NCBI GenBank assembly: GCA_020441045.1
Contig: JAGRMV010000002.1
Span: 1 to 35,262, forward strand
Direction: 5' to 3'
DNA length: 35,262 nucleotides
DNA from: Deltaproteobacteria bacterium
GTDB lineage: Bacteria; Bdellovibrionota_G; JALEGL01; JAGRMV01
The translations under genes were made by a program, and so were the position numbers. The stretch's first letter is position 1, and each line of letters opens with the position of its first letter. Of this stretch, positions 1 through 29,390 are shown piece after piece. The notes below the pieces were generated by a model that saw nothing but the letters and a program-made list of their open reading frames with translations, ran no database searches and was not told the DNA's origin.

Positions 1-21
1 GGCGTGGATATGTTTTGCGCC

Positions 22-1323: not shown

Positions 1324-1328
1324 ACCTA

Positions 1329-2462
1329 TTATCCTACCTTTTTGATCAAAGACCCGCGCCCTAGTTTTTTCTCGAGCAAGTATGCGCTTTTCGCATCCTT
1401 GACTTGGCTCTGGTCAAACTGTTCATAATTCAAAAACTTCACCAGCACCAAGGAAATAAATACAAAGAACACGACGCCAGCTGTTATGACAGCAAATGTC
1501 ATATCAATCAAGAGAAAACCTATGCCAGCACTTACCATGGCGTAGGTGGCCAAAATTACGTTGGTTTTACGCTGGGTGCATCCAGCCTTTAACAAACGAT
1601 GGTGCAAATGATCGCCATCGGCAGACATCGCTTTGCCGATCAGCTTGATGGGATTGTATTGTTTGTGGATGCGTACTTCTTTGGTCACGCGGCGAAAAAC
1701 TGAAATCGCAAATTCTAGCAGTGGATAAGACAGAAACAGCAAGGGCAACCAAATCAGACTCCCAGTATAAGCATGCAAACACTCGATACTCATCACCGCA
1801 AGCGCATACCCTAAAAACATACTGCCGCCATCGCCCATGAATATTTTGGCAGGATGAAAGTTGTAGAGAAAAAAGCCTAGCACCGCACCAACCAATAAAA
1901 AACATAATATCGCAATCGGCATATTGTGCTCCAACGCAGCCAATATACCTAACGCAAATAACACAATTACAACATAAGAAGAAGCCAGACCATCCATACC
2001 GTCGATCATATTCAACGCATTCATGACCACAATAATCCAAAGCACTGTCATCGGCATAGACAAATACCCCAAATCTAGACCTGTCCCAAAGCCAAAGTGG
2101 ACTTGCTCAATATGAAACCCGGCGCCATAGGTCATAAGGCCCAGAAGGAGCTGTCCAAGCAATTTACGTTTTGGGGAAAGGGTGAAGAAGTCATCGACCG
2201 AGCCAAGTAGCATCGCTGCAACAGCGCCATAAAGTAAAAAAGAATAATCCTTCGAGAGCACCGTAAAGTAGGAGACTGCAGGGAAAAGCAAAATACTCGA
2301 TAAAAAAATCCCCACCCCTCCGTGGCGTGAGATTGGAAACAAATGAATCTTTCGTGAGTTCGGAAAATCGACCCAGTTATAAAGTTGGCAAACTTTCATC
2401 ACAACTGGCATCAAGGCGATCGATACCAAAAAAGAAATGATGAAGCTTAAAAATAAAATCAT
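1329..2462 (-). CDS. wecA: Polyprenyl-phosphate HexNAc-1-phosphate transferase (GT4/MraY-WecA-TagO family initiating transferase)
   Basis: 377 aa and strongly hydrophobic, with about 10 predicted TM segments. It carries family motifs 'NALNMIDGMDGLA' and 'IFMGDGGSMFLGY'. ATG is at 2462. It lies 5 nt upstream of the dehydrogenase gene. Confidence 0.8.
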   Translation of the reverse strand: MILFLSFIISFLVSIALMPVVMKVCQLYNWVDFPNSRKIHLFPISRHGGVGIFLSSILLFPAVSYFTVLSKDYSFLLYGAVAAMLLGSVDDFFTLSPKRKLLGQLLLGLMTYGAGFHIEQVHFGFGTGLDLGYLSMPMTVLWIIVVMNALNMIDGMDGLASSYVVIVLFALGILAALEHNMPIAILCFLLVGAVLGFFLYNFHPAKIFMGDGGSMFLGYALAVMSIECLHAYTGSLIWLPLLFLSYPLLEFAISVFRRVTKEVRIHKQYNPIKLIGKAMSADGDHLHHRLLKAGCTQRKTNVILATYAMVSAGIGFLLIDMTFAVITAGVVFFVFISLVLVKFLNYEQFDQSQVKDAKSAYLLEKKLGRGSLIKKVG

Positions 2463-2581
2463 ACCATTGTTGCCATTTTAACACACTTGCGTGCAAATTA
2501 AGGTTATACATCAGGCTCAATTAACGCCCGTAAGGCATCTATTAACAGATATTTGCCCGTTTTAGCAAAAAAACCGCCAGT

Positions 2582-3667
2582 TCAAAGAACTTCTGTCAAT
2601 TTCTCTAAAATACGTTTGCCAGCTTGCCCATCCCATAGCGGTGGAATGGCAACCTGACTTACATCAAATGCCTGCAATGATGGTCTTATGGCTTCGAGGT
2701 TTTTATTGATCAAAAAGTTCGACCCCATGTCCGTCGTACTGGGTCTTTCTGTATTGGGTCGCAGGGTAAAGCACGGTTTTTTAAGATAGGTGGTCTCTTC
2801 TTGAATGCCACCACTATCAGTTAAAACAAAGTCGGCATGGTAGACCAGTGACATAAATGAAAAATAAGGCTGTGGCGCAATCAATACAAAACGGCGACGC
2901 ACATCATCTGGAATATGCTCCATCATCTTTTGGGTACGCGGGTGCACAGGAAAAATAATTTTGGTCTGCGCTGGAATATTTTCAACAATGTTTTGTAAAC
3001 GCTGCGCAAGCTCATCGGATGTATCAACATTGGCAGGGCGATGCAGCGTCAACACGCAGTAAGGATCTTTTTCAAGTCCAAATGTTGTTAATACCTGGCG
3101 ATCTTCTATCGATATAAGGTTGGATACCAGCGTATCGATCATAGTATTGCCGACAAAAAAAATACGCGCAAGATCGATGCCCTCATGCGCAAGATTGACG
3201 TTGGCTGATTTTTCCGTCGTAAAAAGATAATCAGAAATATGATCGGTGATTTTGCGATTGATTTCTTCCGGCATCCCTGTGTCAAAACTGCGTAACCCCG
3301 CCTCAATATGTGCGACTTTGATTTGCAATTTAGTGGCCACCAATGCGCACGCAACGGTTGAATTCATATCACCAATGACAACAACCAGGTCAAACGCATG
3401 TTGTGCCAGGACTTTTTCAAATCCAACCATGATTTGCGCGGTCTGGCTGGCATGGCTGCCACTACCTACATTCAGATGGTAATCAGGCGCAGGCAAACAA
3501 AGCTGTTCAAAAAAAACTTCATCCATTTCCTTAGAGTAGTGTTGTCCGGTATGCAGTAGCTGCAACGAAAGCTCAGGAAACTGGCTGGATACCCGGAACA
3601 ATGAAGCGGCTTTCATCATATTCGGTCGCCCCCCCACACAGATCAGTATTTTTTTCAACGCTTCCAC
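2582..3667 (-). CDS. wecB: UDP-N-acetylglucosamine 2-epimerase (non-hydrolysing)
   Basis: 361 aa with motifs 'GGRPNMMKAA', 'HTGQHYS', 'HIEAGLRSFD' and 'DSGGIQEETT'. The apparent start is GTG at 3667, overlapping the stop of the upstream wecG-like gene by 13 nt. Confidence 0.9.
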   Translation of the reverse strand: MEALKKILICVGGRPNMMKAASLFRVSSQFPELSLQLLHTGQHYSKEMDEVFFEQLCLPAPDYHLNVGSGSHASQTAQIMVGFEKVLAQHAFDLVVVIGDMNSTVACALVATKLQIKVAHIEAGLRSFDTGMPEEINRKITDHISDYLFTTEKSANVNLAHEGIDLARIFFVGNTMIDTLVSNLISIEDRQVLTTFGLEKDPYCVLTLHRPANVDTSDELAQRLQNIVENIPAQTKIIFPVHPRTQKMMEHIPDDVRRRFVLIAPQPYFSFMSLVYHADFVLTDSGGIQEETTYLKKPCFTLRPNTERPSTTDMGSNFLINKNLEAIRPSLQAFDVSQVAIPPLWDGQAGKRILEKLTEVL

Positions 3668-4446
3668 CTTTCTTTTAAAACACGTACGCCATATAGCATA
3701 AGCGGTTTGATTCGTTTATATCTTTGTAGGGGTTGGCTGACAATTCTATACAGCCACTCCATTCCGATACGACGTATCCATTGCGGCGCGCGCGTTACTG
3801 CGCCAGAAAGCACATCAAAACTACCACCAACCCCAGTAAAAAGCGTCTGTGGAAAACGGTTGACCTGTTCGATTATCCATTGTTCCTGCTTAGGTGATCC
3901 CAACCCGACAAAGACCAGGTCTGGGGGAGTCGACTGCATCAGCTGCGTAATATATCCTGAATCATTCTGATAGCCATCGACAGCAAAGGCAATGTTAAGT
4001 TTCGGGTAAGCAACTTGCAGAGCTTGTAATGCTTTTGCTATATTGTCTTTGCTGGCACCATATAGTGCGATGGTTTTTTTTTCTTTTTCACAAAGGGCGG
4101 CCACATCAAGTAGTAAATCTGCACCTGTTACCCTTTCTATATTTTTTTGTTGAAGAAGTTTGCTGGCTATCGCCACCCCTATCCCATCAGCATAGACAAA
4201 ATGCGCCTGCAATAATAGCTGGCATACATCTTGGCTTGCAATGGCATGCATGATTTTTTCAGGATTCAAGGCAATATAATACCCACCACTGCCTTGCGCA
4301 AGTAGTACTTGCACCCTAGCCATGATTTCAGCATGCGTTATAGCCAATGGTAAAACCTTCAGCAAGGCTCTGATTGAATCGGTAGATCGATAATTCACTG
4401 CATGCCTCTGCGATAACGTTGGCCAAGAAAAAGGGCGATCTTGCAA
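3655..4446 (-). CDS. wecG: WecG/TagA/CpsF-family glycosyltransferase (N-acetylmannosamin(uron)yl transferase)
   Basis: 263 aa with motifs 'ALNPEKIMHA', 'YADGIGV', 'VGLGSPKQEQWI' and 'GVGGSFDVLSG'. The ORF-track start is TTG at 4446. No ATG lies upstream of the conserved core, so the exact start is uncertain. Confidence 0.8.
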   Translation of the reverse strand: MQDRPFSWPTLSQRHAVNYRSTDSIRALLKVLPLAITHAEIMARVQVLLAQGSGGYYIALNPEKIMHAIASQDVCQLLLQAHFVYADGIGVAIASKLLQQKNIERVTGADLLLDVAALCEKEKKTIALYGASKDNIAKALQALQVAYPKLNIAFAVDGYQNDSGYITQLMQSTPPDLVFVGLGSPKQEQWIIEQVNRFPQTLFTGVGGSFDVLSGAVTRAPQWIRRIGMEWLYRIVSQPLQRYKRIKPLMLYGVRVLKERWKR

Positions 4447-4599
4447 GTGTCATCAAACATTTTCTGTAGTACCTATATAGCTTCTGACGATCCGTCAATC
4501 AACCCTTGACCTTCCTGGGGACAGGGTGTAGTAGTCGTGAAACAATTTTGGATTAATTTTAACTAGTTAGATAGTGATTGTACATAGTACGGACGTTGT
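4447..4599. promoter_or_regulatory. Divergent intergenic region between the wecG-like operon (-) and wzm/wzt (+); presumed bidirectional promoter region
   Basis: This 153 bp non-coding gap separates divergently oriented operons. It contains 'TTGACC' (4506-4511) and a perfect 10-bp palindrome 'TAACTAGTTA' (4560-4569) about 30 nt upstream of the wzm ATG. No convincing -10 box was identified by eye. Confidence 0.3.
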
Positions 4600-5355
4600 A
4601 TGCTAAACAAAAAAGATATCGTTGTTTTCTATACCAAGGCAAAGTTGGAAAACGACATCTTTAATAACTATATCGGTTTTCTATGGTGGCTGTTGGATCC
4701 GGTGCTATCGGCTGTCGTCTACTACGTTGTATTTGATCTTATTTTACGACGAGGTGGCCCCGATTATATTATGTACCTCTTTGTTGGTATTGTTGTCTGG
4801 AAATGGTTTCAAACCACGATCAAATCTGGCAGCGCTTCTATTTTGAACAATAAAAATCTCTACAAAAAGGTCTATCTGCCAAAAATTGTTTTTCCTTGGA
4901 TCGAAATCAATTTTGCTTCATTCAAATTTATTTTTGCCATTGTCTTTATCGCTGTACTGTATCCTCTGCTGGGTTTTCCGTTGACGCTCAATTACTTATA
5001 TCTACCCATTTCATTTTTCGCACTGTTTGTTTTTATGCTTGGCATAAGTACTTTATTGGCTGCCTTGGTGCCTTTTATTCCCGACATCAACCTTGTCATT
5101 GCTCATCTATTGCGTTTGTTATTTTACCCTTCAGGCATTTTGTTTCGCCCCAACCAAGTCCCAGATCGGTTGCAGTTTGTATTGACTTACAACCCGATCG
5201 CGCAAGGGGTCAAAGCATTTCGCGATATTTTGATGTATGGGGAAGCGCCATCAACTTTTGGCATTTTCTTTTTGATTGGACTTGGATTGGCGACCTATTT
5301 TATAGGGGTGATCTTGATTAAAAAATTTGAGGGGAAATATGCCAAACTTGCCTGA
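4600..5355 (+). CDS. wzm: ABC-2 type polysaccharide/teichoic-acid exporter permease (Wzm/TagG/KpsM family)
   Basis: 251 aa with about 6 hydrophobic TM segments. It is followed immediately, with overlap, by a Wzt-type ATPase. Size and topology are typical of ABC-2 permeases. Confidence 0.8.
   Translation: MLNKKDIVVFYTKAKLENDIFNNYIGFLWWLLDPVLSAVVYYVVFDLILRRGGPDYIMYLFVGIVVWKWFQTTIKSGSASILNNKNLYKKVYLPKIVFPWIEINFASFKFIFAIVFIAVLYPLLGFPLTLNYLYLPISFFALFVFMLGISTLLAALVPFIPDINLVIAHLLRLLFYPSGILFRPNQVPDRLQFVLTYNPIAQGVKAFRDILMYGEAPSTFGIFFLIGLGLATYFIGVILIKKFEGKYAKLA
5329..5334 (+). promoter_or_regulatory. Shine-Dalgarno-like site for wzt
   Basis: 'GAGGGG' lies 4 nt upstream of the ATG at 5339. The TTG at 5327 used by the ORF track has no such site. 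Confidence 0.5.
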
Positions 5356-6049
5356 TGCAACACGGGTCATTGACTGCCAAAATATTGCTGTTTATTATCC
5401 ACCACAAAATTCAATCTATCGGCGAAGCAATAAAGAAGATGGATTTTGGGCTGTGCGCGATGTTAGTTTTCAATTGAACAAGAATGATGTTCTTGGCTTG
5501 ATTGGGCGTAATGGCGCGGGCAAAAGTACAATTTTATCGGTTGTCAACAACATCATCGAGCCAGACAAAGGAAAAATCGAAACCTATGGTCATTCGACCA
5601 TGTTACTTTCGATCAATGCTGGTATGTCCAATAAACTCTCGGGAAGAAAAAATATTTATATGATGGGACTCACCCTTGGTATTCCCAAACCAATCATTGA
5701 TGAAAAAATCGAAGAGATCATTGACTTTACTGACATCCGCACCTTTATTGATAAACCTGTAGAAACCTACTCTTCGGGGATGAAAACGCGGTTGGGATTT
5801 TCAACGGCGCTGTATTTGGAACCTGAAATATTTTTGGTTGATGAAGCCCTTGGGGTTGGCGATAAAGACTTTCGCAAAAAATCATCCAATGCGCTCCACG
5901 ACAAGCTATCTAAAAACTCGACTGGCATCATTGCATCACACAATGAGAAAACCATCAAAGAGCTTTGCAACAAAGCACTGCTGATTGAAGAAGGGCAAAG
6001 TATTGCTTTTGGTACACCTGAGGAAGTTTTTAAACAATACAACAAGTAA
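5339..6049 (+). CDS. wzt: ABC polysaccharide exporter ATP-binding protein (Wzt/TagH/KpsT family, short form without C-terminal carbohydrate-binding domain)
   Basis: It has Walker A 'GRNGAGKST', ABC signature 'YSSGMKTRLGF', Walker B 'IFLVDEALGVGD' and H-loop 'IIASHN'. The preferred start is ATG 5339 (236 aa), overlapping the wzm end by 17 nt. Confidence 0.9.
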   Translation: MPNLPDATRVIDCQNIAVYYPPQNSIYRRSNKEDGFWAVRDVSFQLNKNDVLGLIGRNGAGKSTILSVVNNIIEPDKGKIETYGHSTMLLSINAGMSNKLSGRKNIYMMGLTLGIPKPIIDEKIEEIIDFTDIRTFIDKPVETYSSGMKTRLGFSTALYLEPEIFLVDEALGVGDKDFRKKSSNALHDKLSKNSTGIIASHNEKTIKELCNKALLIEEGQSIAFGTPEEVFKQYNK

Positions 6050-6060
6050 TCAAATCAATA

Positions 6061-6720
6061 TTATTTCACTTGCTGATGTAGTTTCGGTGCAACAATTGAA
6101 TCGTGTTTGATCGCTTGTTCCAAAAGATCTTGCAATTGATTTTTTTCAATCTTAGATGGGTCATATTCGTTGGACATCAACACTCGATAGTAACCTTCAC
6201 AGACAGGATCATACTGTTTGATCTTGGACAAAAAGTAATCCAATGCCACTTCATCACGATTGGATACGGCCTGCTGAATCAGTTCGTTGAATACTTCTTT
6301 GAGTTCGGCTGTATAACTAGCATCTTCTCCTTGCAGCGTTTCCATATATTCGTAAAAAATCGGCACCAATTCTTGATTGCCGGTTTCTTTGGCGTAATCA
6401 ATAAATTTTTTAATGATATAGATTTTGCTTTTCTCATCTGAAATAAATAGTTTTTTTGCCAGCGCAGCATTGATATAACGCTGATAATTACCATTTTCTT
6501 GTAAGAAGGCCTCAAATTGTTGTCGAGAAACTCTCTTGCCAAGTAGTGCATAAAATGGGTGAAAAATGCGCAGCTTAACAAAGACAAAAGCGATCGACCT
6601 TTTGATCCAGCCTTTACATTTACGCAAAAAGCTTACAACAGCCATCATTCTGCGCACACCAATGGTCCGGGTCAAACGGTTTTTAAGCGCTTCCTTGCAT
6701 ATAAAAACAACATTACTCAT
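6061..6720 (-). CDS. Hypothetical helical protein, homologous only to the N-terminal module of the three upstream paralogues
   Basis: 219 aa. The block 'VALDYFLSKIKQYDPVCEGYYRVLMSNEY' aligns with 'FEYFLQKIKKYDEIFELYYRYVARQF' (6717-8402) and 'LNFFLDKLQHGDAIYEQYYRLLSNQF' (8405-10087). 'KLRIFHPFY' aligns with 'KLIRIFPNFF'. Its start forms an ATGA overlap with the upstream stop (6717-6720). It is convergent with wzt, 11 nt apart. Confidence 0.5.
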   Translation of the reverse strand: MSNVVFICKEALKNRLTRTIGVRRMMAVVSFLRKCKGWIKRSIAFVFVKLRIFHPFYALLGKRVSRQQFEAFLQENGNYQRYINAALAKKLFISDEKSKIYIIKKFIDYAKETGNQELVPIFYEYMETLQGEDASYTAELKEVFNELIQQAVSNRDEVALDYFLSKIKQYDPVCEGYYRVLMSNEYDPSKIEKNQLQDLLEQAIKHDSIVAPKLHQQVK

Positions 6721-8402
6721 ACCAACTCCGATACCCCTCTGGTTTTATGCCCCAGCCAATAGTCTCCCATGGCGCCCACGTCCAAAGCGACTGCACCTTT
6801 TTCTTTGGATTTTTTCAAAAAACATTTTCCAGCAAAACCCGCTGCGACCAAAACCAGATCACCTTTTTCAACAGTAGACTCGACCTCTGCAATCAACGCA
6901 TCAATTTTAAATGGCATCGATTGTGCTTTGGTTCTTTCTTTGGGAACTTGTATGGTGACAATATCATAACCAGCAAAGGCTTGTTTCATTTCATCGGAAT
7001 CGTAATTTGAAATGACGACCACTTTATTGGCCAACGCAAAGAAATCGGTCACTTTTTCTTTGGTGAACAAAACCTGATGGCAGCGATTTTCTGAAAAAAC
7101 CATATTTGCATGAAATTTGCGCGCATCCATATCTTTTTGCAACTGTTCCATGATCATCACAGAACCGCGTTGATTTCTACGCTCTGTAAAGGATGTGCGT
7201 AAGTTAGGCAAATCCGAGACAAATCGAAAAATGCTAGGAATGCCTAGAACATCACAGTCATAAAAGGTTTCAAGAAAGTGATCCGAAAGTTTTTTACGTA
7301 AACCATGACTTAAATTGACGCCCCACCATTTCATCTCACGCGACTGACAATCGATCAAAAACGTCTCATCAACATTGCGGATATTCTGAAAACCATAGGT
7401 ATCGGCATCTCCAATTCGAAGCATAAACATTGGTTTTTGCTCACGCAAGTGTGACATAATTTTATCATACAGCTGCTTTTGCTCGTTTTGATCAATACGA
7501 ATATCGAGTAGTGTTGTGTAGTTTGCAGACATTTGGCGATATTGTTTTCGTAAATTGTCAATATAGGATTTATTGTCAGCATCCCCAGGAATATCCTCTA
7601 AATGATCAAATACCGCTTCCCAATGTTTCTTTTCAGTTGGCGCTGTCTGACCCAAGGCATTATGAATTTCTTGTGTGACTTCATACAGTTTGATTTCGCC
7701 ATATTTTTTAAGCTCTGGATCAACTATATTTGCAATCACTTTATTCCGGTAGGCCAAAGCCTGTTCGGGTTGTTTTTTCTTCAAGGCCAATTTGATAATA
7801 CCGATGGACAATCGTAAATACTGATGTCGTCCAAAAAGATAGGCCTTGCCTTCTTTATCTAGATAGGCAATGGCATTGTCTAAGTCTTCTGCCTGAATCA
7901 GCTTGGTGATATATTGTGAAGCGATACTACGAAACAATGTCGACGCTTCACGCTCTGCTCGATCATAAAGCGCCTTCCACTCATCTTCTGACACACTACC
8001 TTCTAGAAACTGTCGCGCGACATATCGATAATACAGTTCGAAGATTTCATCATATTTTTTGATCTTCTGAAGGAAGTATTCAAATTTATAAAAATCTCTC
8101 AACGCATATGCCTCATGGATAATACGCTCATAGGTTTTTACAATTCTTTTTTGCACTCCACCATGGGTTGGCACATCATAAGATAAGAGTTCTAGAAAGG
8201 CTGATCGTAGTTCATGCTCTTCAAGTTCTTTTAAATCATCTACGACTTCTTCTAAAAAGTGAATACGGTTCTTTTTCTCGGAAAAATATTTATCCGCAAC
8301 CTTGTTATAAATATCAAATTTTTCTACATTCTCTTTATAGAACAAAAAGTCGTTCATCAAACGATTGGGCACTTTGGAAAATATTTGACTGAGTTTTGCC
8401 AT
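6717..8402 (-). CDS. Uncharacterised two-domain protein, paralogue A (helical N-domain plus putative GT-D-like C-domain; metal-site motif reads GDAD)
   Basis: The C-terminal half shares ordered blocks with paralogues B and C: 'LLDIRID', 'LRIGDADTYGF', 'REMKWWG', 'DVLGIPS', 'QRGS', 'ENRCHQVLF', 'VPKER', 'LVLVAAGFAGKCFL' and 'ALDVGAMGDYWLGHKTR'. The preferred start is ATG 8402 ('MAKLSQIF'), 2 nt after the stop of paralogue B. The ORF-track TTG at 8450 would overlap B by 46 nt. Confidence 0.6.
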   Translation of the reverse strand: MAKLSQIFSKVPNRLMNDFLFYKENVEKFDIYNKVADKYFSEKKNRIHFLEEVVDDLKELEEHELRSAFLELLSYDVPTHGGVQKRIVKTYERIIHEAYALRDFYKFEYFLQKIKKYDEIFELYYRYVARQFLEGSVSEDEWKALYDRAEREASTLFRSIASQYITKLIQAEDLDNAIAYLDKEGKAYLFGRHQYLRLSIGIIKLALKKKQPEQALAYRNKVIANIVDPELKKYGEIKLYEVTQEIHNALGQTAPTEKKHWEAVFDHLEDIPGDADNKSYIDNLRKQYRQMSANYTTLLDIRIDQNEQKQLYDKIMSHLREQKPMFMLRIGDADTYGFQNIRNVDETFLIDCQSREMKWWGVNLSHGLRKKLSDHFLETFYDCDVLGIPSIFRFVSDLPNLRTSFTERRNQRGSVMIMEQLQKDMDARKFHANMVFSENRCHQVLFTKEKVTDFFALANKVVVISNYDSDEMKQAFAGYDIVTIQVPKERTKAQSMPFKIDALIAEVESTVEKGDLVLVAAGFAGKCFLKKSKEKGAVALDVGAMGDYWLGHKTRGVSELV

Positions 8403-8404
8403 AG

Positions 8405-10087
8405 CTACATTACAATATCCAATATTTGACGGGTTTTCTGGCCGACCCAATAGTCAGCCATCGCGCCAACATCGACAGCCACTGCGCCTTGGGTTTTTGA
8501 TACATGTAAAAAATATTTGCCTGCATACCCCGCTGCTACAAGGACCAATGTACCAGGCCCAGCTTGCGCCTGCAGGGAATCTATATAACCATTCAAATGA
8601 TAAGGCAATGACATATTTTTCTTACGTTCGCCAGGAATGGTCAAACAATGCAAATTTTCATGCTTGAGAACAGCACGCAAGGATGATTCGTCGTGTCGAC
8701 TTATCACGATCACCTTTGGACTAACCGCAATCAAACGCGCGATGGTAGTTTGATCAAACAAAACCTGATTACAACGATGCTCAACAAATACCGCACCTTG
8801 AGAAATCTGCCCTTCAGATAATTCCTTGGCCAGCCGATCCAGAATAACCAGCGAGCCTCTTGAATCCAAAGAATCCAAAAAATTAGAGTTAATATAAGTC
8901 ATATCGCGAAAAAAACGGTACATACTAGGAATACCAATCACATCGGCATGCCTGACTGTCGTTAAAAACTGATCGACAACTTTATCCTTTATGGCAGGCT
9001 CCAAAAGTCCACCCCACCACTTATTTTCGCGAATCTGCCAATCTTCTAGGTTACTGTCTTGCTTGACCCAATGACTTTCTAGTCCATAAGATTCGCCATC
9101 GCCGAGTCGAATCAGCGAAAGTGGTTTTTGATCAAGTAAAGCTTGGTGAATCATATTGTAGACAACTTCGCGTTCATTTTTATCTATGCGAATATCTAAA
9201 TACATTTGATGGTCTTGCCCCAGCTTTTCAAAAATCTCAAAAGCGTGTTGAAAAATTTTTTCTGAGTGTTGACCTGCGCCAATAGACATCGCCATTTCAT
9301 AGCCTTGCTTCCACAAGGCCGTGCTATTTTTATGATCAAGTCGATTTTCGAGCATCATTTCAACTTCATAAAACACTTCAAAACAGCGAATTTGCGTAAG
9401 CTTTCTAATTTTTTCATCACGGATTTGACCCAAGAAATAGGTTTTAAAATCTTTTGCACTATCGTGGGCGTTGTCCTTGATACAAAGCTTAAGAATGCCA
9501 ATAACAAGATTGATATCTCTTTTGTGAATTCCATGCTTAGAAATTTTTTGTTTAAAGTAAAGCAAAGTATCTTCTAAGTCTGTTTCCTTGATGCTGGTTT
9601 TGATCAATTCATTGAGAATTTTTTCGTGCATGGCATGATTTTCTAATCCTGCCTTTTTTTCCAAATCTTTCCATTGATCCAAAAAGGAAGTCGCATCAAA
9701 AAACTGGTTAGACAGTAGCCGATAGTACTGCTCGTAGATGGCATCACCATGCTGTAATTTATCAAGAAAGAAGTTTAGTTGTGGACGGTTACGTGATTTA
9801 TAGGCGCGGTTGACAATTTTGCGCTGCATGTTGATTTGATTAGCACGGTACCCCAAGTGTTTTGGTAATAAAAAATGTAACATCGAAAAAACCGACTCAC
9901 GTGCCACTGGATCATGCAAAAAATTCTCTTCTTTGAGCAGTTCACGTAGAAAAAGTTCTTTATGGGTTTTAGATCGGAATAAATAATCTAAATGTTCAAA
10001 GCCAGGTAAATATTTTTCCATGTGATTTTCATAATCAAGAAACTGCCGAAAGAAAAAATTTGGAAAAATGCGAATAAGTTTTTTCAT
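8405..10087 (-). CDS. Uncharacterised two-domain protein, paralogue B (helical N-domain plus putative GT-D-like C-domain)
   Basis: 560 aa with blocks 'YLDIRID', 'LIRLGDGESYGL', 'RENKWWG', 'DVIGIPS', 'SRGS', 'EHRCNQVLF', 'IPGERKK', 'LVLVAAGYAGKYFL' and 'AVDVGAMADYWVGQKTR'. ATG is at 10087. Confidence 0.6.
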   Translation of the reverse strand: MKKLIRIFPNFFFRQFLDYENHMEKYLPGFEHLDYLFRSKTHKELFLRELLKEENFLHDPVARESVFSMLHFLLPKHLGYRANQINMQRKIVNRAYKSRNRPQLNFFLDKLQHGDAIYEQYYRLLSNQFFDATSFLDQWKDLEKKAGLENHAMHEKILNELIKTSIKETDLEDTLLYFKQKISKHGIHKRDINLVIGILKLCIKDNAHDSAKDFKTYFLGQIRDEKIRKLTQIRCFEVFYEVEMMLENRLDHKNSTALWKQGYEMAMSIGAGQHSEKIFQHAFEIFEKLGQDHQMYLDIRIDKNEREVVYNMIHQALLDQKPLSLIRLGDGESYGLESHWVKQDSNLEDWQIRENKWWGGLLEPAIKDKVVDQFLTTVRHADVIGIPSMYRFFRDMTYINSNFLDSLDSRGSLVILDRLAKELSEGQISQGAVFVEHRCNQVLFDQTTIARLIAVSPKVIVISRHDESSLRAVLKHENLHCLTIPGERKKNMSLPYHLNGYIDSLQAQAGPGTLVLVAAGYAGKYFLHVSKTQGAVAVDVGAMADYWVGQKTRQILDIVM

Positions 10088-10260
10088 TGTATTTTGTATG
10101 CAAAAGTTTTTACAGGCAAGTCCACAAAAACATCACCTTCCAAGACGACACCAGTCTTGGTATATAGCAGTAGCTATACAACATATAAAAATGACATGCA
10201 CGCATATTCAAAACATGCCACATAAAGTCAATTGCTGTTAAAATCAGCTATTTCCTCGTA

Positions 10261-11697
10261 TCAAACAAAGTCAGCAATTTGCCTGGTATGATGCCCGAGC
10301 CAATGATCGACCATAGACCCTACATCTAGGGCGACACAACCAGCACTTTTTGCTGCTGCAAGAAATCCTTTCCCTGCAAAACCTGCTCCAACCAAAACCA
10401 AATCGCCTGGGCGCAGTAATGACAGCAGCGACGATGTATAATCGTCAACATGATATGGCAACGATGTGTTGCCTTGCCTTTCACCCGGAATCTGAAAAAA
10501 GGCCACTTTTTCACTTTCAAATAGTGCGGCCAGTGGCGCTTGCGCATACTTTGAAACAATGATGGTTTGGGGTGCCCATTGCATCAGTTTTTTTATTTGC
10601 GGGAGTCGAAATACCGTTTGATGACAACGATGTTCGCAGAACACCACCTGCTTGCTTATTTTTTCATGATGATAATCATCGATAAGCTGTCGATGGATGC
10701 TTTTTAATCCTCTTTGGGAAACAGATTCAATACGATTGAAGGTAAGATAGTCTTTTAAATTCATCCCGAGGTAATCTCGATAAAAACGATAACAACTTGG
10801 TATACCTAAGCAATCTGCTTGGTAATAAGCCTGTTTAAATAACTGGCATATATGATTTCGCGTTGATGATGCTAACGGCTGCCCCCACCATTTGTTTTCG
10901 CGCACATTCATATCACCACTATGTTTATCTCCCATAAATGCATAGGACTCCCCATCTCCCAGACGCAATAACAAGTATGGTTTGCTGTTTTTGATCGCAT
11001 CAGCAATGGCACCTAAAAGCTGATCTTGTTCAGCTTGTGAAAAACGAATATCCAGTAACAAGGCTGAAGCGCGCTGCAATCGGCAGTGATCCACCTTAAC
11101 TTCATAAAGCAGGTTGCTTTTTCCATAAAGTTGTAGCTTGTCTAAAATATCAAAAGTTTCAATCCACCTGTGGCGAGTCAGTTTTTGAGAGAAAAAGGTA
11201 TCTAATTTAAAATGAATCTCTGATGTCATCAGTGAAATTTTTTTGTGTAACACAGGAGATGATATTTTTGCAAAACAGCTCTCTTTAAAGTCCCTTGCCT
11301 GTTGATAGGATTGATTCTCCATCAATAAATGTAAAATTCCGATATATTTCTGGGCATCCCGAAATTTAAAACCAAAACTTTCAATGCCTTGTAAAAACAG
11401 GACAACTGATCTTTCTGTGTTTTTTTCAACAATCAATTGTAAAACCATCTCATGATGAATGACTTTTCTCAGTTTTTTATTTGTTGTCGGTACCCTGTCG
11501 TACAGAGTTTGCCAGTCGAGAAATGAAGGTTTATCTCCGAGCACCCTGTCAATATAATGCCGCCAAAACCAAAACTTATGTACATTATACTTTTTAAGTT
11601 TTAAGATATTTTCATCTACAGCTTGAATATTTCTTTGATGATAAAATTTTTTGATCTTCCACTCGTAGAAATTTGAAAATATTTTTTGTGCAATCAT
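10261..11697 (-). CDS. Uncharacterised two-domain protein, paralogue C (shorter helical N-domain plus putative GT-D-like C-domain)
   Basis: 478 aa with blocks 'LLDIRFS', 'LLRLGDGESYAF', 'RENKWWG', 'DCLGIPS', 'QRGL', 'EHRCHQTVF', 'IPGERQG', 'LVLVGAGFAGKGFL' and 'ALDVGSMVDHWLGHHTR'. ATG at 11697 lies 14 nt after the upstream stop. Confidence 0.6.
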   Translation of the reverse strand: MIAQKIFSNFYEWKIKKFYHQRNIQAVDENILKLKKYNVHKFWFWRHYIDRVLGDKPSFLDWQTLYDRVPTTNKKLRKVIHHEMVLQLIVEKNTERSVVLFLQGIESFGFKFRDAQKYIGILHLLMENQSYQQARDFKESCFAKISSPVLHKKISLMTSEIHFKLDTFFSQKLTRHRWIETFDILDKLQLYGKSNLLYEVKVDHCRLQRASALLLDIRFSQAEQDQLLGAIADAIKNSKPYLLLRLGDGESYAFMGDKHSGDMNVRENKWWGQPLASSTRNHICQLFKQAYYQADCLGIPSCYRFYRDYLGMNLKDYLTFNRIESVSQRGLKSIHRQLIDDYHHEKISKQVVFCEHRCHQTVFRLPQIKKLMQWAPQTIIVSKYAQAPLAALFESEKVAFFQIPGERQGNTSLPYHVDDYTSSLLSLLRPGDLVLVGAGFAGKGFLAAAKSAGCVALDVGSMVDHWLGHHTRQIADFV

Positions 11698-11711
11698 AGA
11701 TAGTGATTCTC

Positions 11712-13253
11712 TTATACCGGTAATGTTTTATCCCCAGCAACTGTATTTTTCATCACACTAATCGAAGGGCAAAGCCTTTGATCCTTACAATAGTTGAAAC
11801 GATCAATCACGAGACATTTTGCCTCAATTTTTTCTTTTACAAGCTGCGTATAGGTTAGATTTTTTACAAAAGACGATGTCATCATGGAACACGATGTGTA
11901 GAAATATTCTGCATATGTATATTCAGAAAAATGGTTTTTTTGGTAAAATCGATTGTTTTTTTCATCATAGGACCCGGGTTTTGTTACGGTATCTACCTGC
12001 GCAAAATGAAAAGCCAAAATCATATCAAGCAAGTAGTTTGCACCATAAAATGAATGTGGGTTGAAAATAGACAGAAAAAAAGCATCATGCTGCAAAAACA
12101 TTGCTTTGATCGCATCAGACCCATCTTCAAATAAAAGGGCATGCTTATGGACAACATGATCATGTTTTGCTTTTGTCACAATATATAGTTTTCTGTTACC
12201 ACAGGTTTGCTGATCAAACATTTCAACAACCTGATCTATATCGTTACTTTCTTTACAATCTGCCAGCACAACAGTAGGCACTTGCGGAGAAATATCTTGT
12301 AAAATGCCGTTTACCGCTGTGTATACAGCAGCCAATCGCTGTCCACAGGTATGATTTTTTAGTACTTTCCGAAGCCCTTGCAATGTCAACGACTGCCTTA
12401 CATCTTGATCAGAAAAAATTTGTTTGAACGAACTTTCTATTACTTTGTAATCATCTGAGCATATCATGACATCGCCAAACTCCTTTTTAATACCATCAGA
12501 ATGATTGCCTACGACAAATGTATTGGAAGCCATGAGCTCAAGTACGCGTCTGGAATACATCGTATTGGAATTTTTGACTGAATTCATATTGATGCCGAAT
12601 TGATATTTCTTATAAATATTTTTCATTTCAGAAAATGGCACGCTACCATGAACATGATTCGTATATTTCGAAGGAAACCGATATTTTCCTTTTCCGTCCA
12701 GCCTGTCATAAATATGAATATCTACATAGCGAGAAATCGCATCAAATAAAGCATCAAAATTTTCCGCCCGGATAGGATACTTATAATGTGGGTAATATGT
12801 CCCTGCAAAAAAAGCGGCTTGCTCTCTGCTACCCGTCGTCACTGGATTATGTATTTTGGGCTGACACCCAAAGGGGAGCACATATACTCTTTCATGGGCA
12901 ACAGACTTTTTATAACGGTCAATACAGTTTTCGTCGGTAAGAAAAATAAAGTCAAAAAGTTTTGAAACCCGCATAAACGTAAAAAAATGTGGCGGCACCT
13001 CTTTATGCCAGAAAACCGTTGGAATGTTATTTTGTTGGGCCCATGCAATGATCTCAATGATCTCATTTGAAATCTCTGAAATTTTTCCTTTCCAGGTATG
13101 ATCTTTTCCTTGCCATACGGATTCCACAAAAAGCAGGTCTGGTTTGACCGTTTGACATACGTCTTTCCAGTCATTTGGCGTAACCTGGATAAAATTTGCT
13201 TCATACTTAAATGTTTCAAAACTAAACGTATCCATAATGCATAAAATATTCAT
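11712..13253 (-). CDS. Putative glycosyltransferase, CgeB-like (DUF3880 / Glyco_trans_1_2-like) with an extra C-terminal domain
   Basis: The N-terminus 'MNILCIMDTFSFETF...PDLLFVESVW...IPTVFWHKE' and the central block 'YSRRVLELMASNTFVVGNHSDGIKKEFGD...LKNHTCGQR' resemble CgeB-type GT-B proteins, from memory. The preferred start is ATG 13253. The ORF-track start at 13418 adds 55 lysine-rich low-complexity residues. Confidence 0.55.
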   Translation of the reverse strand: MNILCIMDTFSFETFKYEANFIQVTPNDWKDVCQTVKPDLLFVESVWQGKDHTWKGKISEISNEIIEIIAWAQQNNIPTVFWHKEVPPHFFTFMRVSKLFDFIFLTDENCIDRYKKSVAHERVYVLPFGCQPKIHNPVTTGSREQAAFFAGTYYPHYKYPIRAENFDALFDAISRYVDIHIYDRLDGKGKYRFPSKYTNHVHGSVPFSEMKNIYKKYQFGINMNSVKNSNTMYSRRVLELMASNTFVVGNHSDGIKKEFGDVMICSDDYKVIESSFKQIFSDQDVRQSLTLQGLRKVLKNHTCGQRLAAVYTAVNGILQDISPQVPTVVLADCKESNDIDQVVEMFDQQTCGNRKLYIVTKAKHDHVVHKHALLFEDGSDAIKAMFLQHDAFFLSIFNPHSFYGANYLLDMILAFHFAQVDTVTKPGSYDEKNNRFYQKNHFSEYTYAEYFYTSCSMMTSSFVKNLTYTQLVKEKIEAKCLVIDRFNYCKDQRLCPSISVMKNTVAGDKTLPV

Positions 13254-13648
13254 TTGTTCAAAACCACACTGGATCGCTTTGGCTTTGGTGTTTTTGATCA
13301 GTGTAAAGTAAAGACGCATATTTTTTATTGTAACTTTACGAAACCATACTAACCGCTTTGCTGCATTTTTTAATCTCACCAAATGCAAAAGCACTGTATT
13401 TTTTACTTTCATCTTCATAAAATTTTAAACATAAAAATCTGTTACCATCCTCTAATGAAAATACGTAGCATAACTCAGACTTCAAATAAAAGGGTTTCTT
13501 TTGCTGGTCTGGGTAGAACTTGCAATGCTTTGAAAAAGAGATAATCCACATTCACGAAAGCAATGCCCCATGGTAGAATCAATACTGCCAATAAAGAACA
13601 GTGTCCCTTAATGCTTTGCTAAAAAATTGAACTTTGCCTGATAGCTTT

Positions 13649-15340
13649 TTAATATCTCCACAAGCCATAATCTTCTAAAACACCACATATTCTATATCCA
13701 TAGAACCCTGCAATCTTAAAGTGTCTGCCACTAGGACACTCTTTCACTAAATTCGGCATAAAATGATTTTCAGCCATCAATTCAGAAGCATAAAATAAAA
13801 AACGCTGAGCGAATCTATTGGTATCATGAATAAATTTTGCATCCGGATGTTTAATCATCATTATTTGTGCAAAATTCGTTTCTGTATATTGTTTTTTATA
13901 AACATTCCTCCCAACAATCCAACAATTGAAAAAGAGCACTCCACTAACTGCGTATATGATAATTTTTTTTATCAGCAGCTGGGTAGCTGAAAATTGATTC
14001 CGTATTGGCGCAACTATACCAAAAACAATCAAAGGGTACCACCATAGCTGTGGAACTAAGCGTGCATACCACCCCGCGCTGGTAACAAAAACAGTAGACA
14101 GCACAATCCCAATCAAAATAAAAGAAGAAGGTTTCAAGAAAAATAGAAAAAGCAAAGTCATTAACACTGCAAAGCCAAATAACGGCCCATTACCAGAGTA
14201 GCGTATTGTTCCATCTGGCCAATACTTCTGATGAACAAAAGGAACATAACCAACTGGAAGAGGTGGTTTTGAACGATCTCCCTTCGAAAAAACGGATATC
14301 ACAGTTTTGGAAAATCGATTCTTTTTCATAAAATCGGCATGCACTAACCCCTGCAAAACATCTTTTCCACCCTTCCTAATCGCCGGATAAAAAGGATTCT
14401 TTTGTACAACAGTATTTGAAACATAGGGATTAATGCCAAAAAGGAAAATTGATGCCAAAATAGCAATGGAAATAGTTTTTGCAGTTTTAATCCCCCAGGC
14501 AAGATTTCCTTCATACCAAGCAAGCAAAAACACACCAAGTAATATACATGATCCAAAAACAAGGCCCGTAAGTTTAATATTGATTGTATAGGGAATAAAT
14601 AACAATAATATAAATAACAATTTTTTGTCGGTTGTTTAATAATATAAAAGAGATGATGAAAATACGGCAGTCAAGCAGGCAACATGAGGTCCATCCAAAT
14701 ATCCTGAAAAAAACTGAAGGATTGAAGTCGGATTAAGCATCCAAAGACACGACAGCAACAAACTAGTAACAAGCGTATTCTTTAGAAATGTTCTGAAAAA
14801 AGCAAATGAAAAAAAACCTGAAACAATCACAGAGAACATATTAACAAACGAAGCAATAGTAGTTTTTGGTAAAAGAATGTACATCGTTGAAGCTACAATC
14901 CAATTTGATTTCGCATAGTGGCGTAAATATGAACGGTGGGGATGATCTTTATCACATAAGAGATCTGGAATAGCCGCACACTGATCCCAGTTGTAGACCG
15001 GGTTCCAACCTTTGGCTAGCGTGTAGATCCCCTTGAAGTGGTAGTTCCGAGAATCATAAAAAATATCAAACATCTCATTCCCCACAATATAACGCACAAC
15101 CAGGAGGAACATTAAAACAATAAAGGAGAGTAAAAGCTCTTTCCATTTTCCACCATAAAACTTTCCTACAAGAAAGTAAGCGCTACATACACCAAATATA
15201 AAATGAAACTTTGAGATTGAAATACCAAGAAAAAATCCTATCGAACTCAATGTATAGAGAACAGGTGAAAGTAGAACAATCGGTAAAAAAACAACAAAAT
15301 AATCTAAATTAGATATTTTTTTGCTTAGTTTATATATCAT
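13649..15340 (-). pseudogene. Polytopic membrane protein, candidate GT-C-type polyprenyl-phospho-arabinofuranose-dependent glycosyltransferase, interrupted by one in-frame TAA (14636-14638)
   Basis: ORFs 14636-15340 (234 aa) and 13649-14620 (323 aa) are in the same frame. The junction reads '...SSSLLYY*TTDKK(L)LFILLLF'. The downstream part has no ATG until about codon 98 and no SD before its TTG. Both halves are multi-TM. The upstream half starts immediately after the DprE2 stop with no spacer. Confidence 0.55.
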
Positions 15341-17379: not shown

Positions 17380-17774
17380 ACAAGCTCCTTAAACACAAAT
17401 CGTTTGTCCAAAAAATATTTCAATGTATACCCAATACATAGTCCAATTACGCCCCCGAGATAGCGCATCAATTGGTCTTGAAAAACAAGTTCAAACATCC
17501 ATTCAACACCCCAAAAAATCATTGTAGTTATCACCCCCATTGAACTATAAAGCATAAAAAGATATGAATCATGCTTCATATTTTTTGTTTGATAAAAAAA
17601 TATGTATTTTTTGTCTAGTATGTACTTCACTACAAGACCTGTTATGGTCCCAATAAATATAGATACCTGGACCGCATACAATTGATTATACACCCTCAGG
17701 CTTATATCCTGTGATCCAATATTGATTGCTATTGCAAAAAAAGAAAACAATGCATATTTTGTACCCAACTCCAT
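17376..17774 (-). CDS. GtrA-family small membrane protein (Rv3789-like)
   Basis: 132 aa with 4 hydrophobic segments and the family-typical 'KY(I/F)LDK(K/R)(Y/F)(I/V)F' motif present twice. It sits between the UbiA-like and DprE1-like genes, as in the actinobacterial DPA cluster. Confidence 0.75.
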   Translation of the reverse strand: MELGTKYALFSFFAIAINIGSQDISLRVYNQLYAVQVSIFIGTITGLVVKYILDKKYIFFYQTKNMKHDSYLFMLYSSMGVITTMIFWGVEWMFELVFQDQLMRYLGGVIGLCIGYTLKYFLDKRFVFKELV

Positions 17775-19235: not shown

Positions 19236-19393
19236 ATCAATCTATTTCTCCCTCAGGAATTTCTTTGAAAAATTAGGCTTAAAAATAATAAAAATACTGA
19301 TACCAGTATAACAAACTCAACCTTTATAACATGTAGCACATTCTCCTTTTTCCGAAAAAAACAGCTAAATACTTCAACATTATAAGAAACCTT

Positions 19394-21373: not shown

Positions 21374-21376
21374 GGG

Positions 21377-23517: not shown

Positions 23518-23623
23518 GCGGAAGACCGATACTATCTGTTTTGGCTTTGAAAACAAGCTTTTTTCGCGTCAATCCCTAGGCTTAGACCCATCTGCAGGTC
23601 TGTAACAACAAGACTTTTAAACT

Positions 23624-29385: not shown

Positions 29386-29390
29386 CACCG

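Follow-up and report, generated by a model that had tools for sequence, protein, structure and literature searches.

Tandem GT-D-like proteins with TPR-like domains as candidate chain-building enzymes of an ABC-transporter-dependent glycan locus

The DUF1792 enzymes of the GT-D fold (PF08759; structures 4pfx, 4phr, 4phs and 5v4a) belong to the streptococcal SRRP protein-glycosylation locus, where they use UDP-sugars to glycosylate serine-rich adhesins; their DXE motif is reported as the metal site. A further GT-D-like family, PF22882/NF040628, is to our knowledge functionally uncharacterised, and we know of no assayed member of PF22882. In ABC-transporter-dependent assembly of O-antigens and teichoic-acid-like polymers with a short Wzt (Klebsiella O2a galactan; TagO/TagA/TagGH), a WecA/TagO-type initiator and a WecG/TagA second transferase act together with chain-building enzymes that are either GT-A/GT-B proteins (WbbM/WbbO, WbdA-C) or TagB/TagF-type proteins. 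A Wzt that recognises a chain cap carries an extra C-terminal carbohydrate-binding domain. Helical-repeat domains fused to transferase domains are found in OGT and SPINDLY and in TagF-like capsule polymerases with TPR domains, for example the Bcs3/Cps proteins; in such fusions the TPR part presumably serves oligomerisation or the binding of substrates or partners.

We analysed a stretch of 35,262 nucleotides (the window) from a Gram-negative bacterium, probably of the Bdellovibrionota, that contains three tandem genes, wA, wB and wC, and a fourth, shorter gene, wD (Table 1). The original prediction had called the first three clear paralogues, and BLASTP bears this out: they share 31-33% identity over 435-566 residues (E 5e-70 to 3e-102), a resemblance that at the sequence level is far above chance. 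All nine of the proposed C-terminal motif blocks were recovered by regular expression, in identical order, in each protein, the acidic motif being D-A-D in wC where wA and wB have D-G-E. The genes are tightly coupled as described, with TAG-ct-ATG at the wB-wC junction and the wC stop overlapping the wD start (ATGA). wC could be longer, with a TTG start at 8450, but this is the less likely choice, since the MAKLSQIF encoded from the ATG aligns with MKKLIRIF of wB. The N-terminal block said to be shared by all, FL.K[IL]...D...E.YYR, is present in wB, wC and wD, with a spacing one residue off from that proposed, and is degenerate in wA, the fastest-evolving paralogue, which lacks about 85 N-terminal head residues found in wB and wC. 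The presumed N-domain-only copy, wD, indeed matches the B/C-type N-domain, and of that only the first ~135 residues (E 5e-9 with wC, 4e-5 with wB); its own N-terminus is basic and moderately hydrophobic. No transmembrane segment was found in wA, wB or wC (maximum KD19 <=1.5).

Table 1. Features of the array and its neighbourhood in the window (positions count from its first letter)
Feature	Position	Strand	Description
wecC-like	22-1323	minus	UDP-ManNAc dehydrogenase
wecA-like	1329-2462	minus	GT4-family phosphotransferase
wecB	2582-3667	minus	UDP-GlcNAc 2-epimerase
wecG/tagA family	3655-4446	minus	ManNAc(A) transferase; PF03808 E 8e-50; TIGR00696 above cut-off
Strain-variable cassette with array	3682-19394		G+C below flanks (GC profile)
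wzm	4600-5355	plus	ABC-2 permease, PF01061
wzt	5327-6049	plus	ABC ATPase, 240 aa; PF00005 at residues 44-175
wD	6061-6720	minus	219 aa, helical head-only protein without catalytic domain
wC	6717-8402	minus	ORF, 561 aa from ATG; TPR-like + GT-D-like
wC C-domain	6720-7520		~residues 295-561; RIGDADTY at 7395-7418
wB	8405-10087	minus	ORF, 560 aa; TPR-like + GT-D-like
wB C-domain	8408-9211		~residues 293-560; RLGDGESY at 9086-9109
wA	10261-11697	minus	ORF, 478 aa; short-N-domain (A-type) TPR-like + GT-D-like
wA C-domain	10264-11058		~residues 214-478; RLGDGESY at 10942-10965
CgeB-like GT	11712-13418	minus	GT-B glycosyltransferase; Glyco_trans_1_2 (PF13524) + DUF3880

The C-domains had been regarded as an unrecognised family, neither classical GT-A nor GT-B, with a tentative resemblance to PF08759. 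That model gives no match at E<=1 for any of the three. All three nevertheless pass the gathering threshold (27 bits) of PF22882, the 'GT-D fold-like domain', with 28.6 bits for wA, 50.2 for wB and 35.8 for wC; the NCBIfam model NF040628 ('GT-D_rel') matches below its cut-off and over the N-terminal third only. The family is thus already catalogued, its glycosyltransferase activity being putative, and is conserved outside the source genome: an exhaustive profile search returned 2,559 clusters at 50% identity.

Predicted structures agree with the GT-D guess. AlphaFold2 models reached a pLDDT of 88.3 (wB, pTM 0.84) and 85.9, and the only Foldseek matches of the C-domain with E<1e-3 are the DUF1792 structures 4phr (2.9e-5), 4pfx (5.2e-5) and 5v4a (3.1e-4), each with probability 1.00 over ~280 columns; the runner-up has E 4e-3 and TM 0.26. 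With a profile built from 73 sequences, those three structures again come first among PDB sequences (E 0.009, 0.009 and 0.14), and the profile places RLGDGE opposite 'SVVRFGDGE', and LVLVGAGxxGK…ALDxG opposite 'LILVMLGPTAKVLV…AIDLG', of DUF1792. Sequence and model comparisons together support the C-domain as GT-D-like and a distant relative of the DUF1792 fold. Both are single alpha/beta domains of ~270 residues in which the R-[FL]-G-D-G-E and C-terminal G-x-x-x-K … D-x-G blocks are colinear. The distance is nonetheless great (13-16% identity, TM 0.44-0.52), the array domain has additional conserved blocks (RE.KWWG, EHRCHQ and IPGER), and it is fused to a TPR-like domain whereas DUF1792 is fused to a GT-A domain.

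Across 74 diverse members of the family the invariant or near-invariant residues (R, GDGE, WW, D-G-P, R, R, G-GK, D-G-D and T-R) are mostly charged residues and glycines. On the predicted strands of wB (E323-327, E383-386, E513-517 and E536-539), RLGDGE, ADVIGIP, LVLVAAG and AVDVG lie on the strands or at their C-terminal ends, the usual active-site position in Rossmann-like enzymes. These residues also bear on whether at least one paralogue, along with wD, might be a non-catalytic scaffold or regulatory subunit, a pseudo-enzyme kept for complex assembly. The lack of any catalytic domain in wD, the fast evolution of wA and the change from D-G-E to D-A-D in wC and its orthologue mC would fit such a role. 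However, wA, wB and wC keep every family-wide invariant residue as well as the nine motif blocks, and D-A-D is still an acidic pair, conserved between the orthologues, and we regard this explanation as quite improbable.

The N-domains, 213-294 residues long and differing in length among the three proteins, are predicted by AlphaFold2 with high confidence to form about six TPR-like packed pairs of helices of 10-20 residues. Foldseek likens them to the TPR proteins 8chy, 3fwv and RapF (probability 0.95-0.99); no Pfam TPR model matches the N-domains, and the TPR likeness comes from predicted structure alone. Only a small clade has this N-domain: the window, L002, P0008-P0011 and P0062. It had been proposed that the helical domain acts as a ruler by analogy with the coiled coils of WbdD/WbbB, and the array proteins might on that account include chain terminators or length regulators. 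Long helical N-domains of unequal length in an ABC-transporter-dependent locus would suit such a role; but the models predict a TPR-like helical repeat with no long, extended coiled coil, which leaves the ruler analogy without a structural basis, none of wA, wB and wC carries a fused terminator domain of the kinase, methyltransferase or Kdo-transferase kind, and the short Wzt described below lacks a cap-binding domain. We consider this role improbable.

Fusion of TPR and transferase domains also recalls OGT and SPINDLY, and one may ask whether wA, wB and wC are protein O-glycosyltransferases whose TPR-like domain recruits a protein substrate. OGT and SPY are among the whole-chain Foldseek matches, and the founding GT-D enzymes act on a glycoprotein. 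The TM-scores to OGT/SPY are only 0.15-0.29, however, so the likeness is limited to the TPR part, and the catalytic fold is GT-D-like in the array but GT-B or TagF-like in OGT, SPINDLY and the TagF-like polymerases. Moreover, the conserved partners wecA, wecG, wzm and wzt belong to a lipid-linked polymer pathway, and neither a serine-rich repeat protein nor an accessory Sec system is encoded in the window. Protein O-glycosylation is therefore hard to credit.

Unlike DUF1792, the array lies in an Und-PP/ABC-transporter polysaccharide locus, as had been claimed. It is flanked on one side by the CgeB-like GT, directly upstream and in the same orientation, and on the other by wzm and wzt, the latter convergent with wD and separated from it by 11 bp between the stop codons. 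The wecA, wecB and wecC-like genes would by their sequences start the primer and supply UDP-ManNAc(A), and the WecG/TagA-family protein would add the second primer sugar. The best NCBIfam matches of Wzt are TagH and the galactan Wzt, and nothing, including a cap-binding domain, was found past its ABC ATPase domain. A Wzt of this kind gives no reason to assume a chain terminator. Once WecA and WecG are set aside, the window cassette has just the CgeB-like GT and wA, wB and wC as known or candidate glycosyltransferases; this makes the three array proteins, by elimination, the main candidates for the chain-building enzymes. Of the original proposal that they extend and/or terminate the chain, extension is therefore the part we retain.

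We think it rather probable that wA, wB and wC are soluble cytoplasmic, metal-dependent glycosyltransferases that extend an Und-PP-GlcNAc-ManNAc(A) primer prior to export by the ABC transporter. WecA and WecG would assemble this undecaprenyl-PP-linked primer on the inner side of the membrane, and wA, wB, wC and the adjacent CgeB-like GT would add further sugars, each paralogue probably forming a different linkage. The nucleotide-sugar donor may be bound through the acidic (metal) motif RxGD(G/A)(E/D) and the GxxGK…DxG loop. The TPR-like domains and wD would most likely keep the enzymes in contact with one another or tether them to the membrane or the acceptor, and the co-inherited Wzm/Wzt would export the finished polymer. 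Catalytic activity, donors, acceptor, linkages, division of labour and complex formation are all inferred here. The initiator, second transferase, proposed cytoplasmic synthesis and exporter (Wzm with short Wzt/TagH) would resemble those of the Klebsiella O2a galactan and wall teichoic acid, with the difference that the candidate chain builders are GT-D-like.

The same array, with order and orientation kept, adjoins wzt-wzm-wecG-wecB-wecA-wecC in a distant metagenomic genome (L001-L004), and the three-gene array with its head-only protein was seen there and in the window only. The B and C types of the window and L002 are reciprocal best hits: wB and mB share 35% identity, and wC and mC, which also has GDAD, are orthologous (39% identity, 87% NJ bootstrap). 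Orthology of wA and mA is less certain. The counterpart of wD in L002 is mS1 (148 aa, E 2e-10). No recognised GT-A or GT-B gene was found in the L002 cassette. In L014 a single GT-D-like copy occupies the same chromosomal site as the window array, and wecC, wecA and wecB genes flank it, as they do the array in L002; in L014 (42% identity) and in L006, GT-D-like genes have a homologue of the CgeB-like GT next to them. A near-identical sister strain (MAG GCA_041391435.1) lacks the array, unrelated glycan genes replacing the cassette: by blastn the window matches it at ~90% identity over 1-3681 and at 94.6% over 19395-26000, with no match between. Wzm is 57% identical to that of L002 and 38% to that of the sister strain, and Wzt 64% and 53%; both co-vary with the array.

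The genomic context also raises the question of the donor. Instead of being ordinary UDP-hexose enzymes, the GT-D-like domains could transfer a non-classical residue or use a non-classical donor, such as Kdo or nonulosonic acids in CMP-activated form, or sugar-phosphates, with at least one paralogue perhaps an adaptor or cap. In L005 the GT-D-like gene is directly downstream of NeuB in a PseB/PseC/GNAT/NeuB operon, the single copy in L014 adjoins a CTP_transf_3 cytidylyltransferase with a HAD and HMGL-like set, NeuB occurs in two of seven genome loci, and L015 has a TagF-like Glyphos_transf gene. In keeping with this, dedicated hexose-nucleotide genes are absent from the window cassette. Nor does the cassette encode a nucleotide-sugar pathway specific to wA, wB and wC other than that for UDP-ManNAc(A), which counts against the chain-extension reading. 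On the other hand, NeuB, CMP-sugar synthetase and CDP-alcohol genes are all missing from the 35-kb window, the KpsC/S-like Capsule_synth protein of L005 could itself be the ulosonic-acid transferase, and the sole structural relatives use UDP-sugars (PDB titles of 4phr and 5v4a). A non-classical donor thus seems unlikely, though it is the alternative we take most seriously beside chain extension by metal-dependent glycosyltransferases.

The association with wzm/wzt, evident in the window and L001-L004, is not general across the GT-D-like family: an ABC-2/ABC pair lies near the GT-D-like gene in ~7 of the 14 neighbourhoods examined. Compact permease + ABC_tran + GT operons occur in L008, L016 and L018. 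GT2, GT4, NeuB and rml genes are frequent around members of the family, and both TPR-fused and GT2-fused architectures recur among the long PF22882 members (18/74 and 8/74, respectively).

All four ORFs of the array lie on the minus strand exactly where the original prediction had placed them. We refer to the three two-domain paralogues as wA, wB and wC and to the head-only ORF as wD. BLASTP aligns wA, wB and wC over nearly their full length at 31-33% identity (E 5e-70 to 3e-102), confirming the paralogy, and the nine C-terminal blocks recognized by eye are found in all three in unchanged order. A shared N-terminal block had also been proposed; it is present in wB, wC and wD, where its corrected form is FL.K[IL]...D...E.YYR (the spacing had been one residue too long), and is degenerate in wA. 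wD resembles wB and wC only over the 'head' of their N-domain, which spans the first ~135 residues. The tight junctions are also as described, TAG-ct-ATG between wB and wC and an overlapping ATGA between wC and wD. Promoter and terminator scans of 5900-13700 gave nothing exceeding shuffled expectation and operon boundaries are therefore based on gene spacing alone.

Genes of the glycan locus and its surroundings in the window, in map order
Feature	Position	Strand	Remarks
wecC-like dehydrogenase, wecA-like initiator, wecB epimerase, wecG/tagA-family transferase	22-4446	minus	
wzm, wzt	4600-6049	plus	PF01061, PF00005
wD	6061-6720	minus	219 aa; next after wzt, array convergent with wzt
wC	6717-8402	minus	561 aa
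wB	8405-10087	minus	560 aa
wA	10261-11697	minus	478 aa
CgeB-like GT	11712-13418		beyond wA; Glyco_trans_1_2
Membrane ORF	13649-14620	minus	no family
Membrane ORF	14636-15340	minus	no family
DprE2-like SDR	15341-16075	minus	
DprE1-like FAD oxidase	16075-17379	minus	
HAD-UbiA fusion, phosphoribosyltransferase-like	17775-19235	minus	
macB-hlyD-OEP, ugd, epimerase, further envelope genes			follow the HAD-UbiA fusion
UDP-glucose dehydrogenase	23624-24939	minus	the ugd named above; split by frameshift
Methyltransferase	26573-27739		
Sulfatase-family protein	27724-29385		
ORF	29844-31343		no Pfam match
ORF	31484-32731		no Pfam match
MBOAT O-acyltransferase	32626-34026		
ORF	34039-35091		no Pfam match

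The C-terminal domains of wA, wB and wC match PF22882 ('GT-D fold-like domain') with 28.6, 50.2 and 35.8 bits, respectively, all above the 27-bit gathering cut-off (wA barely so), and the matches span almost the whole 210-position model. All three miss the 75-bit cut-off of NF040628 (GT-D_rel), with 16.4, 40.2 and 17.2 bits limited to the N-terminal third of that model. PF08759 (DUF1792), the family named in the original prediction, gives no HMM match at E<=1 for wA, wB or wC. The GT-D hunch itself is correct at the level of fold and superfamily, as indicated by PF22882, by structural comparison and by profile ranking.

AlphaFold2 modelled full-length wB from a 41-sequence alignment with a mean pLDDT of 88.3 and a pTM of 0.84, and the wB C-domain alone from 22 sequences with a pLDDT of 85.9 and a pTM of 0.88. 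Foldseek comparison of the C-domain model with the PDB returned exactly three matches with E<1e-3, all of them DUF1792 GT-D structures (4phr, 2.9e-5; 4pfx, 5.2e-5; 5v4a, 3.1e-4; probability 1.00 and ~280 columns each); the fourth match has an E of 4e-3 and a TM of 0.26. TM values to the DUF1792 structures are modest (0.44-0.47 for the C-domain model, 0.50-0.52 for the full-length model), identifying the C-domain as a divergent rather than close DUF1792 relative. A single-sequence PDB search with wB gave no relevant match. A 73-sequence profile placed the same three DUF1792 sequences on top (E 0.009, 0.009 and 0.14). Its matches form two colinear blocks, in which 'lSviRlGDGE' pairs with 'SVVRFGDGE', and 'LvLvGAGpwaeiY…GGVAvDiG' with 'LILVMLGPTAKVLV…YQAIDLG'.

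At the residue level, RLGDGE (wA, wB) pairs with SVVRFGDGE in 4pfx/4phr/5v4a (the acidic DXE, R-x-G-D-G-E block after the first strand) and the C-terminal LVLVAAG(F/Y)AGK…A(L/V)DVG with LILVMLGPTAKVLV…AIDLG (the G-x-x-x-K … D-x-G block, nucleotide-binding in GT-D proteins). We take the DXE motif of DUF1792 enzymes to be their metal site. In wC the first block reads RIGDAD, which keeps the acidic pair, and D-A-D is also found in its orthologue mC from a distant metagenomic genome. In the wB model, the RLGDGE, LVLVAAG, ADVIGIP and AVDVG blocks map to predicted strands or to their C-terminal ends (strands E323-327, E383-386, E513-517 and E536-539). In Rossmann-like enzymes active sites are usually found at C-terminal strand ends. 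Across 74 diverse family members, most invariant or near-invariant positions hold a charged residue or a glycine, a pattern expected of an enzyme, and the retained motif blocks argue against the paralogues being pseudo-enzymes.

The N-domain had been proposed to act as a helical ruler by analogy with WbdD and WbbB, in proteins that extend or terminate the chain. Residues ~80-292 of wB are instead predicted by AlphaFold2, at high confidence, to form about six packed pairs of 10-20-residue helices with no long extended coiled coil, leading us to reject a coiled-coil ruler; model confidence is low for the head region resembling wD (residues up to ~80). Foldseek matches the N-domain to TPR proteins (the consensus TPRs 8chy and 9qhc, as well as 3fwv and RapF/RapH; probability 0.95-0.99). 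Pfam TPR models find no match in the window proteins at E<=1. Genuine TPR matches are found in 18 of 74 long family members and GT2 fusions in eight of the 74, and one member (P0002) was named a TPR protein by JGI. The window-type N-domain is limited to a small clade (the window, the syntenic locus L002 of the distant genome, P0008-P0011 and P0062). Similarity of whole-chain wB to the TPR-plus-GT enzymes OGT and SPINDLY is weak (TM 0.15-0.29), and the genomic context argues against protein O-glycosylation in the OGT manner. A membrane anchor was also considered and rejected: wA-wC have no TM segment and the top hydrophobic 19-mer of wD is borderline at 1.51.

Regarding chain termination, Pfam finds none of the kinase, methyltransferase or Kdo-transferase domains of WbdD/WbbB-type terminators in wA-wC. 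For cap recognition (O9a-type as opposed to O2a-type), Wzt has to carry an additional carbohydrate-binding domain at its C-terminus. The Wzt encoded in the window (240 aa) consists of the ABC ATPase domain only, without a cap-binding domain, and therefore speaks against a capping or terminating step. The ruler/terminator model, contradicted by both the predicted N-domain structure and the short Wzt, is thus not supported. We infer that the TPR-like domains and wD have a role in complex assembly or in membrane or acceptor recruitment. In two genomes, the head segment missing from the A-type proteins has an equivalent in wD or its counterpart mS1, a suggestive match. No wD-like ORF was found at L014, a locus with a single A-type copy, so that the idea of a head supplied in trans is drawn from two genomes only.

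The surrounding genes place the array in a surface glycan pathway. An ABC-2 permease and ABC ATPase pair adjoins the GT genes, and the initiator is of WecA type (PF00953 at E 5e-41; among NCBIfam models ECA_wecA fits best, though below its cut-off). Wzx and Wzy Pfam families have no match in ORFs of at least 150 aa, and the two polytopic membrane ORFs match no family. In the best-supported reading, WecA and WecG would make an Und-PP-GlcNAc-ManNAc(A) primer, soluble wA, wB and wC together with the CgeB-like GT would lengthen it in the cytoplasm, and Wzm/Wzt would export the finished product. The argument by elimination for these four extenders is strong because the window cassette, besides WecA/WecG, offers only four cytoplasmic GT candidates, and because the L002 cassette has no recognized GT-A or GT-B gene, only four GT-D-like proteins and two DUF6395 proteins. 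To our knowledge, ABC-transporter-dependent polymer synthesis has not been described as a setting for GT-D enzymes.

The array is conserved outside this genome. On a 2-Mb contig of the distant JGI/Logan metagenomic genome (L001-L004), mA-mB-mS1-mC-mS2 are convergent with wzt-wzm, followed by wecG-wecB-wecA-wecC. The window shows the same order and orientation, yet the WecC proteins of the two are only 66% identical. Reciprocal best hits link wB to mB (35%) and wC to mC (39%; bootstrap 87%), wA and mA have the short architecture in common, and wD has its counterpart in mS1 (E 2e-10). These correspondences date the triplication before the split of the two organisms; a recent duplication is likewise ruled out by the 31-33% paralogue identity and the separate B- and C-type orthologues. 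Since the paralogues are ancient, separately conserved and have kept every catalytic block, their sequences suggest that they make three different linkages and are not redundant. The L002 region 3097-8425 encodes a fourth GT-D-like protein (894 aa, similar to wB by phmmer at E 1e-35; no Pfam match recorded), together with two tandem DUF6395 proteins, which may be another unrecognized glycan enzyme and take the place of the CgeB-like GT.

L014 occupies the same chromosomal site as the window (wecA-wecC-x-LysE-PilZ-Lon) and carries one A-type copy adjoining a CgeB-like GT (42% identical to that of the window), with GT4, pyruvyl transferase, cytidylyltransferase and wzm/wzt/wecG genes nearby. The window, L014 (9461-11065) and a Planctomycetales MAG (L006, 11310-13178) are unrelated contexts, and in all three a CgeB-like GT directly adjoins a GT-D-like gene, which suggests a recurrent functional pair.

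A sister MAG (GCA_041391435.1, labelled Bdellovibrionota), whose MacB falls in the 90%-identity cluster of the window MacB, matches the window at ~90% nucleotide identity over 1-3681 and at 94.6% over 19395-26000. It contains no GT-D-like gene between these flanks and has unrelated glycan genes instead (heparinase II/III-like, C5-epimerase, pyruvyl transferase, ComA/ComB, and MBOAT with PP-binding). With matched flanks and a replaced interior, the array sits in a strain-variable cassette (~3.7-19.4 kb). Relative to the sister contigs (L012/L013, JAWKOA010000013.1), the boundaries are sharp and recombination-like, at 3681 (end of wecB) and 19395 (end of macB). G+C is 0.33-0.40 in the cassette (3682-19394) against 0.41-0.46 in the flanks. 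Wzm and Wzt are 57% and 64% identical to those of distant L002 but 38% and 53% to those of the sister strain, indicating that the exporter travels with the array.

Co-occurrence with wzm/wzt holds in part: synteny with GT-D-like genes is kept in L002 and L014 as in the window, but ABC-2 permeases are not universal across the pooled neighbourhoods, which consist mostly of glycan-biosynthesis families. Permease and ABC_tran pairs adjoin GT-D-like genes at L008, L016 and L018; other neighbours are ABC_tran and TagF-like genes (L015), rml, ugd and PagL genes (L017) and GT2, GT4 and methyltransferase genes (L007). At L005 (unclassified MAG, 8127-10858), only 3 bp separate NeuB from the start of the GT-D-like gene downstream of it. 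The operon is of PseB/PseC/GNAT/NeuB (pseudaminic-acid) type and includes a gene for a KpsC/S-like Capsule_synth protein; given this position after NeuB, some family members may transfer nonulosonic acids. As a less likely alternative, the paralogues of the window may use CMP-ulosonic-acid or sugar-phosphate donors or have a cap or adaptor role, a view that takes all its support from contexts in other genomes (the L014 cytidylyltransferase, the L015 TagF-like gene and L005 NeuB).

The array had been described as belonging to an unrecognized family, which is not supported. Word-indexed homology searches returned only 6-41 relatives, suggesting a tiny family, and were superseded by an HMM search run exhaustively over 1.84 billion representatives, in which 2,559 clusters reached E<=1e-3 (1,252 reached E<=1e-30). 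PF22882, to which the C-domains belong, is thus a catalogued and widespread family. Protein lengths peak at 300-399 aa, the size of the stand-alone domain, and again at 500-599 aa, where an N-extension precedes the C-terminal domain; larger fusions exist. A pattern scan built on a 6-sequence alignment and covering 185,579 species at one genome each identified seven loci: one in an unclassified MAG (L005), two in a Planctomycetales MAG, and one each in Thalassovita, Woodsholea maritima, Robiginitomaculum and a Saprospiraceae MAG. Names given by the sources were limited to 'hypothetical' and 'GT-D fold(-like) domain-containing protein', plus a single 'tetratricopeptide (TPR) repeat protein'.

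Of all glycosyltransferase folds, GT-D has the fewest members and is the least understood. The only characterized members known to us are streptococcal adhesin glycosylators, and we know of no assayed PF22882 member. We tentatively propose, as possible though rather doubtful, that the TPR-like/GT-D-like proteins are an uncharacterized polysaccharide-building class, the first of GT-D fold to act on undecaprenyl-linked glycans in an ABC-transporter-dependent pathway. wA, wB, wC and wD would form a heteromeric machine through their helical domains, its composition setting the repeat unit and wD giving the A-type protein a head in trans. Fusion to TPR or GT2 domains is frequent in the PF22882 branch (>2,500 sequence clusters), which also often adjoins ABC-2 exporters. 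If it makes lipid-linked surface polysaccharides, many 'hypothetical' O-antigen and capsule genes of Alphaproteobacteria, Planctomycetes, Bacteroidota and Bdellovibrionota would gain a function, and a new fold would join the polymerizing enzymes of the ABC-transporter pathway. The window offers a compact test system: its primer pathway is defined (WecA/WecG), the candidate extenders number only four, and a strain without the array provides a natural comparison.

Other genes of the window were also annotated. The DprE1-like (NF053785, 366 bits, below the 500-bit cut-off), DprE2-like and HAD-UbiA genes, the last resembling decaprenyl-phosphate phosphoribosyltransferase, adjoin the two membrane ORFs. 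The region 13649-19235 has the look of a DPA-type pathway, supplying polyprenyl-phospho-arabinofuranose as donor to a GT-C-like transferase, by which the exported glycan would be decorated in the periplasm. Such a pathway would be unusual outside Actinobacteria. The two membrane ORFs share one frame, parted by one in-frame TAA and five codons, and may be one ~560-aa membrane protein cut by a nonsense mutation or sequencing error. The UDP-glucose dehydrogenase gene is split into a 368-aa ORF (N-terminal and central domains) and an overlapping 153-aa ORF (C-terminal part); the sister gene is intact (438 aa), so the window carries either a pseudogene or a misassembled gene here. Further envelope-modification genes, outside the array finding, occupy 26573-35091, where the methyltransferase gene overlaps that of the sulfatase-family protein and 32887-34128, covering most of the MBOAT gene, has ~69% nucleotide identity to the sister MAG.
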